From: Patescibacteria group bacterium
Lineage (GTDB): Bacteria; Patescibacteriota; Patescibacteriia; JAXHNJ01
Assembly: GCA_034520665.1 (NCBI GenBank)
Contig: JAXHNJ010000003.1
Location: 11,057 to 75,056, forward strand
DNA length: 64,000 bases
Direction of reading: 5' to 3'
Shown here: in pieces, positions 17,886 to 52,041 of the stretch
Position numbering within the stretch: position 1 is the stretch's first letter
Layout of the letters: each line of letters begins with the position of its first letter
The notes under the pieces: generated by a model
Database searches by the model: none
Seen by the model: the letters and a program-made list of their open reading frames with translations, nothing else
Told to the model about the DNA's origin: nothing
Position numbers and translations under genes: made by a program

Positions 17886-17931
17886 ATTAACTTAATCAAC
17901 TCTCTTAAATTAACTCAACCTCTAAAACCCC
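17886..17931 (+). repeat. octamer array copy B (overlaps murB stop)
   Basis: caattaacttaatcaactctcttaaattaactcaacctctaaaacc. Confidence 0.7.
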
Positions 17932-18788
17932 ACCAGCTGAATTTCCTCCTGTAATTGTATATTTTTTTTATCCCTGACCTGCTGTTTAATATAACTGATA
18001 AGCATAACTACTTCTTCGGCCTTGGCACTGTTAGTATTAATAATATAATTAGCGTGTATTTCCGAGACTTTGGCCGCTCCCATACTTTTACCTTTGAGAC
18101 CACATTCTTCGATAATTTTTCCAGCCGACATTCCTGGTGGATTTTTGAAAGCACAGCCGGCTGAAGGCCTATTCAAAGGCTGGCTTTGTTTTTTATTATC
18201 TATATTTTCTTTAATTTTTTTTTGAATATTTTCTTTTGTATCTTTTATTAAATTAAAAAGTGCTGACAGAATAATATAATCTTTTTCTTTAAAAATACTT
18301 TTTCTATAGGCAAACTTAAGTTCTTGATGGCTTAATATTTTAATATCTAAATTCTCATCAATTACTTTGACCTGACTAATGAAATCACCAATGGCTTTTT
18401 TAGGGTTACCCGTATTACCAACAATAGCGCCGCCGACCGTGCTGGGAATGCCGGCCAGAAACTCAAGGCCTTTTAATTTATGGTCAAGACAAAACCCCAG
18501 TAATTCCCCTAGGGTCAAACCAGATCCGACTGTTATGGTTGTCTTAGACAAAATTTTTAATTCTTTTATTTCATTTTTAATCACCAGGCCGTCAAAACCC
18601 TGGTCAGAAACTAATATATTAGCTCCGTGCCCTAAAATAAAATATTTTATTTTATTTTTTTTGGCCCATTTCAAGGCCTCAATCAGCTGATTTTCATTCT
18701 TGACAATTATAAAATACTTAGCCGGACCGCCAATTTTAAAAGTAGTAAAGGGAGCTAATTTTACTTTTTCTTTCAAACCTTTCATCAA
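17922..18788 (-). CDS. murB: UDP-N-acetylenolpyruvoylglucosamine reductase
   Basis: 288 aa. FAD-binding N-terminus (FKIGGPAKYF...ILGHGANIL) and a C-terminal MurB domain; sits in the mur cluster. Confidence 0.9.
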   Translation of the reverse strand: MMKGLKEKVKLAPFTTFKIGGPAKYFIIVKNENQLIEALKWAKKNKIKYFILGHGANILVSDQGFDGLVIKNEIKELKILSKTTITVGSGLTLGELLGFCLDHKLKGLEFLAGIPSTVGGAIVGNTGNPKKAIGDFISQVKVIDENLDIKILSHQELKFAYRKSIFKEKDYIILSALFNLIKDTKENIQKKIKENIDNKKQSQPLNRPSAGCAFKNPPGMSAGKIIEECGLKGKSMGAAKVSEIHANYIINTNSAKAEEVVMLISYIKQQVRDKKNIQLQEEIQLVGF

Positions 18789-18873
18789 GTTTTATTATAA
18801 ATCAATTAGACTAATAAAAAAAGCCCCGGACTATTAAATCCCAGAGCTCAAATAATTTAGCTCATAAAATAAA

Positions 18874-19143
18874 TCATAACTTTTTGGTCAGAACCGGGAG
18901 TCGGGGCCCCTGACCAGGCCTGATACCGGCTACAATTTTATTAAAAACTTTCTTATAATTAGTATAGCCAGCCCGCAGTATAAACTCAGCTTCACCGGGT
19001 CTGTGAAAACTAGAGATTTCCTGTTCAACCCGTCCATGCTCTTTTAGCCAGCCTCGAGCCAGGTTCAACCGGCCAAAAAGATTAACCAAGCCAATATATC
19101 TAGCCTTGTTATAACCAGGTTCAAGAGCAGCTTTTACTGCCAT
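18874..19143 (-). CDS. GC-rich 89-aa ORF of unknown function (an ncRNA is the alternative reading)
   Basis: The 270-nt segment is about 45% GC against about 33% around it. The ORF fills the segment exactly and the product is Gly/Arg/Ala/Leu-rich with no family match. Preceded by the perfect palindrome GCGGATAAATTATCCGC. Confidence 0.3.
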   Translation of the reverse strand: MAVKAALEPGYNKARYIGLVNLFGRLNLARGWLKEHGRVEQEISSFHRPGEAEFILRAGYTNYKKVFNKIVAGIRPGQGPRLPVLTKKL

Positions 19144-19186
19144 AAATCCCGGCTCCTCACATCGTCACTTTTCAGGTCATCTTTAT

Positions 19187-19203
19187 GCGGATAAATTATC
19201 CGC
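19187..19203. promoter_or_regulatory. 17-bp perfect palindrome GCGGATAAATTATCCGC (candidate operator)
   Basis: Dyad-symmetric, 44 nt upstream of the GC-rich ORF89 on its strand. Confidence 0.45.
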
Positions 19204-19266
19204 AGATCTCCGGCCTCATTTAGAGACTAAAAACTTAATATCTTAATGTCCAATATCTCGATATCT

Positions 19267-19310
19267 TAATATCTAATAACTCAACAACTTAATTAACTAA
19301 TCAACCAACC
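19267..19310 (+). repeat. octamer array copy C (overlaps murC stop)
   Basis: taatatctaataactcaacaacttaattaactaatcaaccaacc. Confidence 0.7.
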
Positions 19311-20655
19311 TTTCCCCGACTTTATAAATATCCCCGGCTCCAACAATAAATATAACGTCGCCTTTTTTAATAATTTTCTTAATCAGTTTTTCAGTATATT
19401 TTAAATTCTTAGCGTAATAAACCTGATCTTTTTTAGCCATCACTTCACGGACAATATCCTGCGAAGAAACACCTTGGTCTTTTTTCTTTTCCCGTCCCTT
19501 AACTTCAAATATTTCGGGCACAATCAAGACATCAACTTTTTTTAAAACACGGACAAAATCATTGAACAAATTTTTGGTGCGGTTATGCTGATGGGGCTGA
19601 AAAACAAAAACTAGTCTTTTTTGGGGATACTTTTGGCGGGCCGCCTTAATTAAATTTTCCACTTCAGTTGGATGATGAGCATAGTCAGAAACAACCGGTC
19701 CACCGGCAAACTGACCAATGATTTCAAACCTTCGCCAAGTGCCCTTAAAACTTTCTAATGATTTTTTAATTATTTTTTTGTCAATACCCAACTCGCTAGC
19801 CAGACTAAAAGCGGCTAAGGCGTTAAAAACATTATAAGTACCGGGCAACTTTAAACTTATTTTAGTATTTTCAATTTTAAAACTAGTTGTTTTTGTACTG
19901 GTTTTAATATTTTTAGCCTGGTAATCTCCTTTTTTCAAACCAAAACTAATTATATTACCTTTAAAATTATGAGCCACTTTTTTAACATTCTTATCATCAG
20001 TATTTATGACTAAGGTTCCAGATAAGGTCAGATTTTCAATATATTTTTTAAAAGTCCTGATAATATCCTCCATATTTTTGTAAGTGTCCAGGTGATCTTT
20101 TTCCAGATTATTCAAAACAATATAATCCGGATAATAATTAAGCATAGCCCGGGCGTATTCATCGGCTTCAATGACTACAAAATTTGACTGACCCAGCCGA
20201 GCGTTGCCTTCTAGCTCGGGTAAATATGAACCGACAATAAAAGTCGGGTCAAAACCAGCCTTTTTTAAAACCCGGGCCATCATAGCCGTAGTGGTTGTTT
20301 TGCCGTGAGTGCCAGAGACGCAAATAAGCTTTTTATCAGCCGTAAACTGGCCTAAAGCCTGAGGATAGGATAACTCTTCTATATTATTTTTTTCAGCTTT
20401 ATTTCTCTCAATATTATCAACCGGTATAGCTTCGGAAAAGACTAATAAATCAGTATCTTTGGCTAAATTTCGGCCTTTATGAGCACCAATCTTTATCTTG
20501 GCTCCGGCCTTTTTAAGTCCTTTAGTTACTATTGATTCCGTCAGATCGGATCCGGAAACCTCTTTACCCATATCCAAACATATTCTAGCCAAACCAGAAA
20601 TACCAATACCAGAGATTCCAACAAAATGAATTTTTTTTGCCTTAGTTATATTCAT
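19297..20655 (-). CDS. murC: UDP-N-acetylmuramate--L-alanine ligase
   Basis: 452 aa. IHFVGISGIGISGLA N-terminus, Mur ligase GTHGKTTTT P-loop. Confidence 0.92.
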   Translation of the reverse strand: MNITKAKKIHFVGISGIGISGLARICLDMGKEVSGSDLTESIVTKGLKKAGAKIKIGAHKGRNLAKDTDLLVFSEAIPVDNIERNKAEKNNIEELSYPQALGQFTADKKLICVSGTHGKTTTTAMMARVLKKAGFDPTFIVGSYLPELEGNARLGQSNFVVIEADEYARAMLNYYPDYIVLNNLEKDHLDTYKNMEDIIRTFKKYIENLTLSGTLVINTDDKNVKKVAHNFKGNIISFGLKKGDYQAKNIKTSTKTTSFKIENTKISLKLPGTYNVFNALAAFSLASELGIDKKIIKKSLESFKGTWRRFEIIGQFAGGPVVSDYAHHPTEVENLIKAARQKYPQKRLVFVFQPHQHNRTKNLFNDFVRVLKKVDVLIVPEIFEVKGREKKKDQGVSSQDIVREVMAKKDQVYYAKNLKYTEKLIKKIIKKGDVIFIVGAGDIYKVGERLVD

Positions 20656-25738: not shown

Positions 25739-25763
25739 CTGGAGATAAATCTCCAGCTACGCG
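25739..25763 (+). repeat. REP-like palindrome, family 1 (CTGGAGATAAATCTCCAG + CTACGCG)
   Basis: Perfect 8-bp arms ctggagat/atctccag followed by ctacgcg (GTAG on the other strand). Identical copies at 41561-41585 and 41654-41678. Confidence 0.8.
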
Positions 25764-41215: not shown

Positions 41216-41254
41216 AAAAGAGCTCGGTTTTTAAGCTCAAACTAATTTTACCAG

Positions 41255-41285
41255 GCTGCGCTTTTTAAGCGCAGCTTTTTTTTTA
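41255..41285 (+). terminator. rho-independent terminator
   Basis: gctgcgc-tttttaa-gcgcagc followed by a T9 run, downstream of the 40654-41215 ORF pair. A related hairpin plus T-run copy is at 42927-42954. Confidence 0.65.
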
Positions 41286-41560
41286 TTTAATGAATCCTGA
41301 ATAGAAATCTGATGCTTAGACAGGTATTGAGTCTCCCGGATAATATCTGCTAAACACGCCATTTTTTGCGTAAGCGGAGATTTATTCCCGCTATTTTTAA
41401 TAAGAAATGAGTGTTTGGTAAATTGAAAAATAAAATTTATATACAAAGAATAATTTATGCCAAATTATTATTAATACCCTAAATTATACCAAAAAGAAGT
41501 TTAATTATCTTCTTAATGCTTATGTAATTATGATAAAACAGGCTCATTTAATTTTGACAT

Positions 41561-41585
41561 CTGGAGATAAATCTCCAGCTACGCG
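41561..41585 (+). repeat. REP-like palindrome, family 1
   Basis: ctggagataaatctccagctacgcg. Confidence 0.8.
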
Positions 41586-41594
41586 GTTGGAGAG

Positions 41595-41652
41595 GTGGAG
41601 ATGGGGATCTGAACCAGAGTCGCGCTAAGCGCGACTTACTAAATAAGATATA
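41595..41652 (+). repeat. 58-nt repeat with agtcgcgc-taa-gcgcgact palindrome
   Basis: gtggagatggggatctgaaccagagtcgcgctaagcgcgacttactaaataagatata; second copy at 42808-42865. Confidence 0.7.
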
Positions 41653-41653
41653 T

Positions 41654-41678
41654 CTGGAGATAAATCTCCAGCTACGCG
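41654..41678 (+). repeat. REP-like palindrome, family 1
   Basis: ctggagataaatctccagctacgcg. Confidence 0.8.
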
Positions 41679-41725
41679 ATTGGAGAGGTTTGTTTACGAG
41701 TAGGTAAAAGATTTATCTCCGCTAA

Positions 41726-41835
41726 TTTACCAAGAAGTCTGAACTTAGTAAATATATTGCCAGAACCGGTCTGGGGACCAGTTCTTCTCGCGAAAAAATC
41801 TTTTTTAAAATATCGCCATATGAATGTTGCGCCAA
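41726..41835 (+). pseudogene. third, internally deleted RAYT-fragment copy plus shared 3' extension (cttttttaaaatatcgccatatgaatgttgcgcc)
   Basis: Matches 42570-42701 except for a deletion of about 20 nt; the 3' extension motif occurs again at 42150-42192. Confidence 0.6.
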
Positions 41836-41883
41836 ATTATATTTTATATTATTTAATAGCCTGGCGCCGGATTTATCCGGCGA

Positions 41884-42150
41884 TTTATGTTTTGCTAATT
41901 GGTTATGGTTATAGCAGCTAGTAAGGTTTTGGTTGTGGGTTTGGAATAAAAAACCATTGACTCAGCCTAATAACCAAACTAGCGGCTCGGCCCAAAACCC
42001 TCTTTTTTGCTAATTGGTTATGGTTATAGCAGCTAGTAAGGTTTTGGTGGTGGGTTTGGAATAAAAAAACCATTGACTCAGCCTAATAACCAAACTAGCG
42101 GCTCGGCCCAAAGCACTTTGTTTTAAGGCTAATTGGTTTATACTTGTGGA
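41884..42150 (+). repeat. tandem direct repeat, about 124-nt unit, 2.2 copies
   Basis: Unit tgctaattggttatggttatagcagctagtaaggttttggt.gtgggtttggaataaaaaaccattgactcagcctaataaccaaactagcggctcggcccaaa...; copies about 95% identical. Confidence 0.75.
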
Positions 42151-42281
42151 GTAATCTTTTTAAAATGTCGCCATATAAATGTTGCGCCAGGAAATAATAT
42201 TATTCTAATCTCTCTGGCGCCGGCTTCTAAGCCAGTGCTATAAGTTTGTATATTAAAAAATAGAATCTAATTACTTTCTAT

Positions 42282-42347
42282 CGCCTAGGCAAAAGATTTA
42301 TCTCCGCGTTTAAATAAAATCGCCTAGGCAGAAATCTCTATTCCCGC
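42282..42347 (-). repeat. composite repeat, family 3, second copy
   Basis: cgcctaggcaaaagatttatctccgcgtttaaataaaatcgcctaggcagaaatctctattcccgc. Confidence 0.7.
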
Positions 42348-42476
42348 TATATATTAAATATTCAAATAGTATGCTTTTGTTTAAATTTATTTTAATATCG
42401 ATAAATCAGGCGTAGAGGCGGGTCATGGCCCGCACCGCCTTATAAAACAAACTGCCAAGGAAACCCTTAAAATTAC

Positions 42477-42653
42477 CCGAGAAGCGCGGATCTCCTGATC
42501 CGCGTCACCTTATTCGGTTGGATCAGGAGATCCAACCTTCTCGAGCAAAAATAGATTATTAAATCTCTAATTCACCGAGAAGCTCTGGCCCCCAGGCCTT
42601 GAGCTTAGTAAATATATTGCCAGAACCGGTCTGGGGACCAGTTCTTTTCGCGA
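42477..42653 (+). pseudogene. second copy of the 177-nt hairpin plus RAYT-fragment repeat
   Basis: Nearly identical to 25512-25688. Confidence 0.7.
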
Positions 42654-42950
42654 AAAAACCTTTTTTAAAATATCGCCATATGAATGTTGCGCCGGGTTGT
42701 ATTTTAAATTATTAAACCTTCTGTGAACGAATTTATTCGGCGCTATGTTCTTAAAAAAAATGATACATTCTCACGCTTTCGCGTGGACACCACTTACTAT
42801 TGTTAAAGTGGAGATGGGGATCTGAACCACAGTCGCGCTAAGCGCGACTTACTAAATAAGATATAGAAAAGATCAGGGAGGAAATTAAAAAAGAGCTTGG
42901 TTTTTAAGCTCAAATTTTTTTCCCAAGGCTGTGGTAAACACAGCCTTTTT

Positions 42951-51816: not shown

Positions 51817-51848
51817 TTTAAGAGCGGAGATAAATCTCCGCCTACGCG
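51784..51848 (+). repeat. two REP-like palindromes (variant cagagataaatcttttgtctacgcg, then gcggagataaatctccgcctacgcg) at the truncated 5' end of the RAYT pseudogene
   Basis: Same half-site GAGATAAATCT and a trailing CTACGCG. Confidence 0.75.
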
Positions 51849-51959: not shown

Positions 51960-52041
51960 CGCGTAGCTGGAGATTTATCTCCAGATTTATATCCAGATTT
52001 CAATTCATCCTCATTACGCGTAGCTGGAGATTTATCTTCAA
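51960..52041 (-). repeat. two inverted-orientation REP copies (cgcgtagctggagatttatctccag, then cgcgtagctggagatttatcttca)
   Basis: Reverse complement of family 1, with GTAG leading the palindrome. Together with 51784-51848 this forms an inverted REP pair (REPIN-like) about 110 nt apart. Confidence 0.75.

Follow-up and report, generated by a model that had tools for sequence, protein, structure and literature searches.

A GC-rich segment between murC and murB in a Patescibacteria genome: probable decayed copy of a small lineage-restricted gene

The murC-murB gap

We consider the gap between murC and murB in a 64-kb stretch of DNA from a Patescibacteria MAG; the whole stretch analysed, 64,000 nucleotides, is called the window throughout. 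The gap occupies exactly positions 18789-19296 (508 bp). The window is AT-rich (GC 0.346), the surroundings of the gap are mostly coding on the minus strand, and the neighbouring murG, murC, murB and secA genes are intact. Directly after murB come FmdE and then a gene for an ECF S-component. The features of the gap and its flanks are collected in Table 1.

The gap contains an annotated ORF of 89 aa. A preliminary description of this DNA had reported a rise of the GC content to about 45%, and the ORF indeed has a GC content of 0.452 as against 0.346 for the window. The same description had the ORF filling the GC-rich segment exactly, which does not hold: the GC-rich stretch runs from about 18857 to 19226 (GC 0.441), past the ORF at both ends, and is the span homologous to a longer gene on the metagenome contig L001 described below. 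The palindrome that had been noted upstream of the ORF is present, perfect and 43-44 nt 5' of the ATG, but its true length is 19 bp rather than 17 bp. Further 5', at 19230-19290 (minus strand), the gap is degraded and by eye contains short AT-rich direct repeats of the AAGATATT type (…TTAGATATTAAGATATCGAGATATTGGACATTAAGATATTAAG…).

Table 1. Coordinates of the features in and around the murC-murB gap (window positions)
Feature	Position	Strand	Remarks
murC	19297-20655	-	Flank; Pfam Mur_ligase domains on the identical Logan contig L002
Putative remnant of an ancestral gene of about 150 aa, whole	18857-19259	-	Homologous to P0002 residues 21-154, in three frames
In-frame TAG stop	19227-19229	-	Aligns with Ser codon AGC of L001; tblastn alignment crosses the TAG
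Segment 1, frame A	19149-19226	-	SLNEAGDLRIIYPHKDDLKSDDVRSR; matches GETEVGDLRIIYPHEENLNNGDLVSR of P0002
Palindrome TGCGGATAAATTATCCGCA	19186-19204	.	19 bp, perfect; 17-bp core of the preliminary description, GCGGATAAATTATCCGC, at 19187-19203
Frameshift 1, one base missing	19146-19149	-	Window CGGG-ATTT, L001 CGGGAATG
Segment 2 (the annotated 89-aa ORF)	18874-19143	-	NCBI locus tag U5L76_05930, hypothetical protein of Patescibacteria MAG; most likely the central fragment of the ancestral gene
Frameshift 2, one base missing, in a GGGG run	18907-18910	-	Window CAGGG-GCCCC, L001 CAGGGTGCGCC
Segment 3, frame C	18857-18907	-	APTPGSDQKVMIYFMS with TAA at 18857-18859; matches APEPGSEKKVWIYFMS and stop of P0002
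Terminator-like hairpin and U7	18816-18847	-	GCUCUGGG/CCGGGGC at 18823-18847, U7 at 18816-18822; read from sequence
TATAAT box	18794-18799	-	8 nt 5' of the murB ATG (18785)
murB	17922-18788	-	Flank of the gap

The homolog on L001

The first question is "does the 89-aa product have relatives in other genomes?" Among about 15 billion proteins there is a sole homolog, P0002, a protein of 154 aa encoded on L001, which is a JGI metagenome contig of 1009 bp (JGI 3300007668, Ga0102935_1100393). The 89-aa ORF and residues 60-148 of P0002 are 62% identical. The P0002 gene is intact, is preceded by a GGAGG ribosome-binding site and lies directly upstream of murB, the same location as in the window. A word-indexed search of 5.8 billion clusters returns two proteins, the 89-aa product and P0002, and a profile search of 1.84 billion representatives with HMMER returns the same two and no others. 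The homology search proposed in the preliminary description hence gives one conserved protein relative, with synonymous-site variation. Searching metagenome contigs finds L001 again together with L004 and L005. These last two share WLKEHGR alone, over 33% identity, and the long ORF beside the match is low-complexity, Asp/Glu-rich and reads as eukaryotic; we take them as chance matches. No relative of the locus is present in the GTDB genomes and viral contigs, tblastn against phages and plasmids gives no match, and there is no second copy of the gene within the 64-kb window. Across these sequence collections, the orphan family has two members and is confined to two genomes, those of the window and of L001.

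The product had been described as belonging to no recognisable family, and the family libraries agree. Pfam, NCBIfam, PHROGs and PADLOC return only noise for the 89-aa ORF, P0002, the frame-corrected protein and a further ORF of L001 (71 aa), the best sub-threshold scores being those of a ParE-like family (E 0.048), FLAD1_M (0.043) and phrog_2180 (0.035). A sequence profile search of the PDB gives nothing better than E values of at least 0.2.

The 71-aa ORF (L001 170-385) lies just 5' of the intact orphan gene and has a strong GGAGGTG ribosome-binding site, which puts GGAGG sites on both small ORFs of the contig. It is a singleton in the 5.8-billion-cluster collection without a family match, and for that reason we rejected it as a clue to a two-gene module. 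The N-terminus of MurB encoded on L001 is too short and too conserved to resolve the phylogenetic position of the contig.

The junction in relatives

Relatives whose MurB is 57-62% identical to that of the window have a DUF72 gene between murC and murB, sometimes with a biotin-lipoyl gene or small ORFs, and often packed tightly against murB. The relatives compared are L008, L010, L011, L013, L014 and L017. Their murC-murB loci contain no relative of the orphan. The synteny comparison that had been suggested earlier finds a variable slot with DUF72 in place of the orphan and, as far as these loci go, the murC-murB junction is a slot of variable content with the orphan block specific to the window and L001. 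The possibility that the orphan is a fragment of DUF72 or of the neighbouring genes is rejected: tblastn against L008-L014 gives only E values of at least 0.17, in arginase genes. Several relatives also have a cluster of arginine/ornithine decarboxylase, deoxyhypusine synthase and arginase genes 3' of murB; at the corresponding positions the window is without DUF72 and without this decarboxylase-arginase cluster.

One gene in three frames

When P0002 is compared with the window by tblastn, it matches three collinear pieces in consecutive frames: residues 21-66 at 19259-19122, residues 60-148 at 19143-18877 and residues 137-154 at 18913-18860. Two stops stand in frame with the first piece, the TAG of Table 1 and a TAA located 13 codons 5' of it, and segment 1 has no ATG, GTG or TTG start before its last 7 codons. 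With the first missing base (about 19148), frame A gives way to the frame in which the ORF is annotated. The ATG of this ORF is a point change (L001 has ATA there) and a GAGGAG at 19153-19158 (minus strand) lies 9 nt 5' of it. At the other end, the last 10 residues of the ORF (PRLPVLTKKL) are out of the ancestral frame, and the ancestral C-terminus is found in segment 3, past the annotated stop codon. In the window, no uninterrupted frame leads from a start codon to the stop homologous with that of P0002.

It may be asked whether these lesions belong to the genome or to its assembly. All 508 bp of the gap recur without a difference on a Logan contig assembled from run SRR26473340, and the 200 bp at each end of this contig are found in the window at the distance expected. 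Because a second assembly has the identical gap and the neighbouring genes are intact, a slip in a single assembly pipeline is unlikely to explain the lesions, with the proviso that the NCBI MAG and the Logan contig may come from the same run and could then have a systematic read error in common.

The coding signal

The codon statistics are based on the DNA alignment of the window with L001 (A1), that is, on two sequences with no outgroup. The differences at codon positions 1, 2 and 3 number 31, 23 and 60 (chi-square p = 4.7e-5). In terms of codons, 34 differences are synonymous, including Ser TCT/AGC and Arg CGG/AGA, and 44 are non-synonymous; as many as 34 synonymous differences are reached in none of 5000 column shuffles (mean 13.9, maximum 29). 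The Nei-Gojobori dN/dS is 0.136 in the proposed frame versus 1.17 and 1.46 in the wrong frames, and for segment 2 alone it is 0.15 versus the same two values. The coding-potential test that the preliminary description had recommended therefore gives a frame-specific excess of synonymous and third-position change. Judged by this pattern of substitution, the ancestral sequence is protein-coding, a small gene.

Each of the three segments contributes to this signal. Segment 1 has 8 synonymous and 12 non-synonymous differences (7, 7 and 16 at the three positions; 25 of 5000 shuffles reach 8). Segment 2 has 21 synonymous differences, a number reached in 1 shuffle of 5000, and segment 3 has 7 identical, 5 synonymous and 4 non-synonymous codons, with 69 of 5000 shuffles reaching 5. 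Since the synonymous excess is found in every segment, all three would have encoded protein through most of the period after the split of the two genomes. The pN values of segments 1, 2 and 3 are similar (0.26, 0.20 and 0.17) and dS is saturated at about 1.8, which together argue that the lesions are recent relative to the divergence.

The murB junction and translation starts

Downstream of the segment and upstream of murB lies the terminator-like hairpin followed by U7. By eye it has an 8-bp stem and a 9-nt loop; the terminator scanner, with its loop limit of 8, made no call. L001 has at the same place GCCUUGGGA-UUUUAAG-UCCCAGGGC and U7, with a 9-bp stem and a 7-nt loop, and the changes between the two hairpins keep the pairing. 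The TATAAT box ends a 30-nt block that recurs almost unchanged in L001 (TTTTTTTATTAGWCTAATTGMTTTATAATA). This box is probably the promoter of murB, which would then have a leaderless or very short-leader mRNA; the murC transcript would end at the hairpin and U7, with murB transcribed from its own promoter. Between the U tract and the TATAAT box there is also an ATTAG-N-CTAAT palindrome (18803-18813, minus strand, in the window; about 909-919 in L001). It is common to both genomes with a different centre base, and with arms of 5 bp its significance is low.

A GGAG or GAGG core at -18 to -6 is found in only 3 of the 53 long ORFs of the window. Most ORF starts in the window follow A/T-rich sequence, and in several genes, including murB, a TATAAT-like box lies a few bases 5' of the ATG. 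These starts suggest that leaderless or non-Shine-Dalgarno initiation is widespread in the genome.

A probable decayed gene

Combining an intact homolog elsewhere (P0002) with the disabling lesions in the window, we arrive at a pseudogene: the GC-rich segment is probably a decayed copy of a small lineage-restricted gene 5' of murB, and the 89-aa ORF is most likely the middle part of a broken gene of about 150 aa. The small protein gene of the preliminary description is right as to its coding origin and the existence of a homolog, but the 89-aa ORF is a fragment of the longer gene. The course of events would be as follows. The relative L001 keeps the intact 154-aa ORF. In the window genome the 5' end of the gene is lost or degraded, and two one-base deletions, probably recent on the scale of the divergence of the two genomes, divide the remainder into three frames. 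With the start lost, stops in frame and two deletions, the longest ORF to survive is the 89-aa middle piece, the only one that gene callers report, and it happens to open at an ATG. The murC transcript probably carries the remnant at its 3' end, up to the hairpin and U7, and murB would be expressed from its own TATAAT box. The ancestral protein would no longer be made from the remnant, which presumably does nothing now.

This arrangement resembles other bacterial pseudogenes, with an intact homolog elsewhere and a local copy that is split, has in-frame stops and is without a start. The mis-annotation is of the usual kind too, the longest surviving ORF being reported as a "hypothetical protein". 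Usual pseudogenes have a well-characterised parent, whereas the parent family here is an orphan with two members. In that respect the gene is like the ORFans of Patescibacteria/CPR: a small protein, known from two Patescibacteria-like contigs only, that has no relatives in Pfam, NCBIfam or the PDB and evolves under purifying selection (dN/dS 0.14). Unlike ORFans generally, it lies within the conserved mur/dcw cluster, in the slot that holds DUF72 in relatives, and it would already be decaying in one of its two hosts.

Alternative readings

The alternative that survives best, although we consider it unlikely, is that the 89-aa ORF is a shortened and still functional protein, made from its own ATG with the GAGGAG before it and a new tail of 10 residues. 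The ORF spans the best-conserved part of the family, with 55 invariant columns including WLKEHGRVEQ and ISSFHRPGE, and would retain the conserved beta-alpha-beta-beta-alpha core. The GAGGAG before an ATG that L001 is without means that the ORF could be translated, and the pN of segment 2 is neither lower nor higher than that of the other segments, so nothing in it contradicts continued constraint. However, at the protein level the out-of-frame segments 1 and 3 show no less conservation than segment 2, and this suggests recent breaks rather than a long-standing new form of the gene. Shine-Dalgarno sites are also rare in this host, whose genes start in A/T-rich leaders, whereas the ATG of the ORF lies in GC-rich sequence with the start region paired in a helix of the minimum-energy fold. 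The shortened protein would moreover be without the N-terminal helix and the first hairpin of the domain predicted by a low-confidence model. If the peptide MAVKAALEPGYNK... were detected, it would be a sign of translation.

It is very improbable, to our judgement, that the 89-aa remnant survives as a new micro-protein acting with the cell-wall genes or that the family is a selfish or accessory gene. The only functional hint is a predicted two-layer fold of low confidence: the AlphaFold2 models (pLDDT 47.5 and 40.3) agree solely on the order alpha-beta-beta-alpha-beta-beta-alpha. A Foldseek search of the PDB gives nothing below E = 0.01 and finds generic two-layer alpha/beta folds. Among these matches are a few to I-DmoI (E about 0.07-0.1, TM 0.30), obtained with the model of pLDDT 47.5. 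Free-standing LAGLIDADG genes resemble the orphan in this predicted order and in a length of about 150 aa, a resemblance only. Homing endonuclease genes are selfish genes, and the sporadic spread of the orphan, its site among the conserved genes of the mur cluster and its frameshift decay would fit their life cycle. The assignment to LAGLIDADG homing endonucleases is rejected all the same: there is no LAGLIDADG match in Pfam at E <= 10 and the Foldseek match is insignificant. Comparison with I-CreI by hhalign shows no similarity, with only 13 columns aligned at a probability of 0.9%, and the LAGLIDADG-like motif IAQIIDQIA is, by reading, without the catalytic acidic residue. A toxin of the ParE/RelE type is rejected as well, since PF15781 stays at 14.1 bits, well short of its cut-off of 28 (E = 0.048), and covers only the N-terminal 44 residues of P0002, and PADLOC gives no match to a defence system. 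An endonuclease-like selfish gene is thus speculation. If the selfish or accessory reading were true, the gene would have been inserted beside murB with its own terminator, would have displaced DUF72 and would now be partly decayed; it might then encode an endonuclease-like protein of the alpha-beta-beta-alpha-beta-beta-alpha class that has diverged strongly.

We find it highly improbable that the gene is intact, either read through recoding (two programmed -1 frameshifts together with read-through or non-canonical initiation) or with its lesions being sequencing errors. Both indels are single-base deletions and hence both would need a -1 shift, and from a reading of the sequence the Gly-tRNA could re-pair one base back in the GGGG run of frameshift 2. 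The same reading finds an X XXY YYZ heptamer at neither site, the first (CGG GAT) not being slippery, and with no slippery heptamers programmed frameshifting is rejected. The in-frame TAG and the missing start codon would demand two more special mechanisms, and the intact homolog P0002 is without a frameshift. Against sequencing errors stand the agreement of the two assemblies and the intact neighbouring genes.

There is next to no likelihood that the segment is a horizontally acquired small gene with the palindrome as its operator, as the preliminary description had offered. The gene is confined to two genomes, the murC-murB slot varies among relatives, the strong GGAGG sites on both small ORFs of L001 are unusual in the window genome, and a palindrome with 9-bp arms near the ORF is locally improbable. 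The palindrome, however, lies within the ancestral codons of segment 1, CTG CGG ATA ATT TAT CCG CAT (LRIIYPH). L001 encodes LRIIYPH as TTA CGA ATT ATT TAC CCT CAT, which differs by five synonymous changes and is not palindromic; the sequence in place of the palindrome is CGAATTATTTACCCT, coding the same residues. A consensus scanner finds no promoter-like site near the palindrome. Being part of the ancestral coding sequence, not palindromic in L001 and without a promoter-like site nearby, the palindrome is not a conserved operator.

The rise in GC is not exceptional: the 89-aa ORF ranks in the top 3.4% of 270-bp windows, and the same level is attained in 19 regions of the window. GC at codon positions 1 and 2 is 0.567 and 0.411 versus 0.423 and 0.311 in the host, and GC3 is 0.378 versus 0.299 +/- 0.058, a value reached by 18% of the 90-codon windows of the host. 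The homologous part of L001 has a GC content of only 0.383. Since the excess lies in positions 1 and 2, it reflects the amino-acid composition of a product rich in Gly, Ala, Arg and Pro and is no evidence of foreign origin. With GC3 in the host range and no match in phage, plasmid and viral collections, there is no support for horizontal acquisition; the murB junction, with a terminator-like hairpin and a TATAAT block in both genomes, fits inheritance with murB.

We give equally little credence to the ORF being a misread structured RNA, non-coding and RNase P-like or of another kind, that is closed by a helix of GGAGCCGGGA with UCCCGGUUCU. The region is GC-rich in an AT-rich genome, and its folding z-score is -3.7 over 431 nt, two hairpins included, and -2.6 over the 306-nt core. 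The homologous region of L001 has a modest z-score of -2.1. The 5'/3' pairing described earlier as P4-like does form in the minimum-energy fold of the window. When its 10 pairs are counted by hand on the alignment, L001 retains only 7, and no change compensates for the others. The consensus fold of the two homologs lacks this pairing, and 2 of the 59 pairs in that fold have a double change, in a comparison of two sequences that has little power. No Rfam family reaches its gathering score over the whole 64-kb window, which agrees with the earlier finding of no RNase P, tmRNA or SRP signature; in 18700-19400, a search at E <= 10 gives only noise at E of at least 1, with best local scores of 14-20 bits versus thresholds of 50-80. 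In its size of about 300 nt, its GC-richness against an AT-rich genome and a possible closing helix over long range, the segment is indeed like RNase P RNA and other Rfam RNAs, but unlike them it matches no covariance model, its helix is lost from the consensus fold and its sequence evolves as codons. The synonymous-site pattern, codon-periodic with dN/dS 0.14, largely refutes the RNA reading.

Other repeats in the window

Perfect inverted repeats that contain G or C and have 8-bp arms number 15 in the window versus 1.0 +/- 1.0 in shuffles, so that chance alone accounts for about one in a window of this size. Most of them belong to a different, intergenic repeat family, whose motif the palindrome at 19186-19204 is without. 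A 25-nt intergenic repeat, CTGGAGATAAATCTCCAGCTACGCG, consists of a hairpin and a CTACGCG tail and is located at 25739-25763, 41561-41585, 41654-41678, 51960-51984 (minus strand) and 52017-52041 (minus strand). These 5 copies with at most 2 mismatches compare with 0 expected, a variant GCGGAGATAAATCTCCGCCTACGCG lies at 51824, and from its sequence we describe the repeat as a genome-specific palindromic family.

A separate stretch of about 1.7 kb (41237-42950) is without a convincing ORF and dense in repeats and hairpins. It has a tandem duplication of about 105 nt (41890-41995 and 41996-42110), a repeat of about 110 nt (near 41740-41850 and 42600-42700) and two occurrences, at 41596 and 42808, of GTGGAGATGGGGATCTGAACCAnAGTCGCGCTAAGCGCGACTTACTAAATAAGATATA, a unit about 55 nt long. 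At gathering score the stretch has no match in Rfam.

Meaning of the locus

The feature between murC and murB is real and biologically ordinary. Our understanding of cell-wall synthesis and of RNA biology is unchanged by the locus, and the GC-rich island is not to be pursued as a new RNA. The main value of the analysis is for annotation: U5L76_05930 should be flagged as a fragment or pseudogene. For this Patescibacteria lineage, the murC-murB junction is variable, with DUF72 in relatives and the orphan in the window, and the locus suggests that murB has its own close-set TATAAT box.
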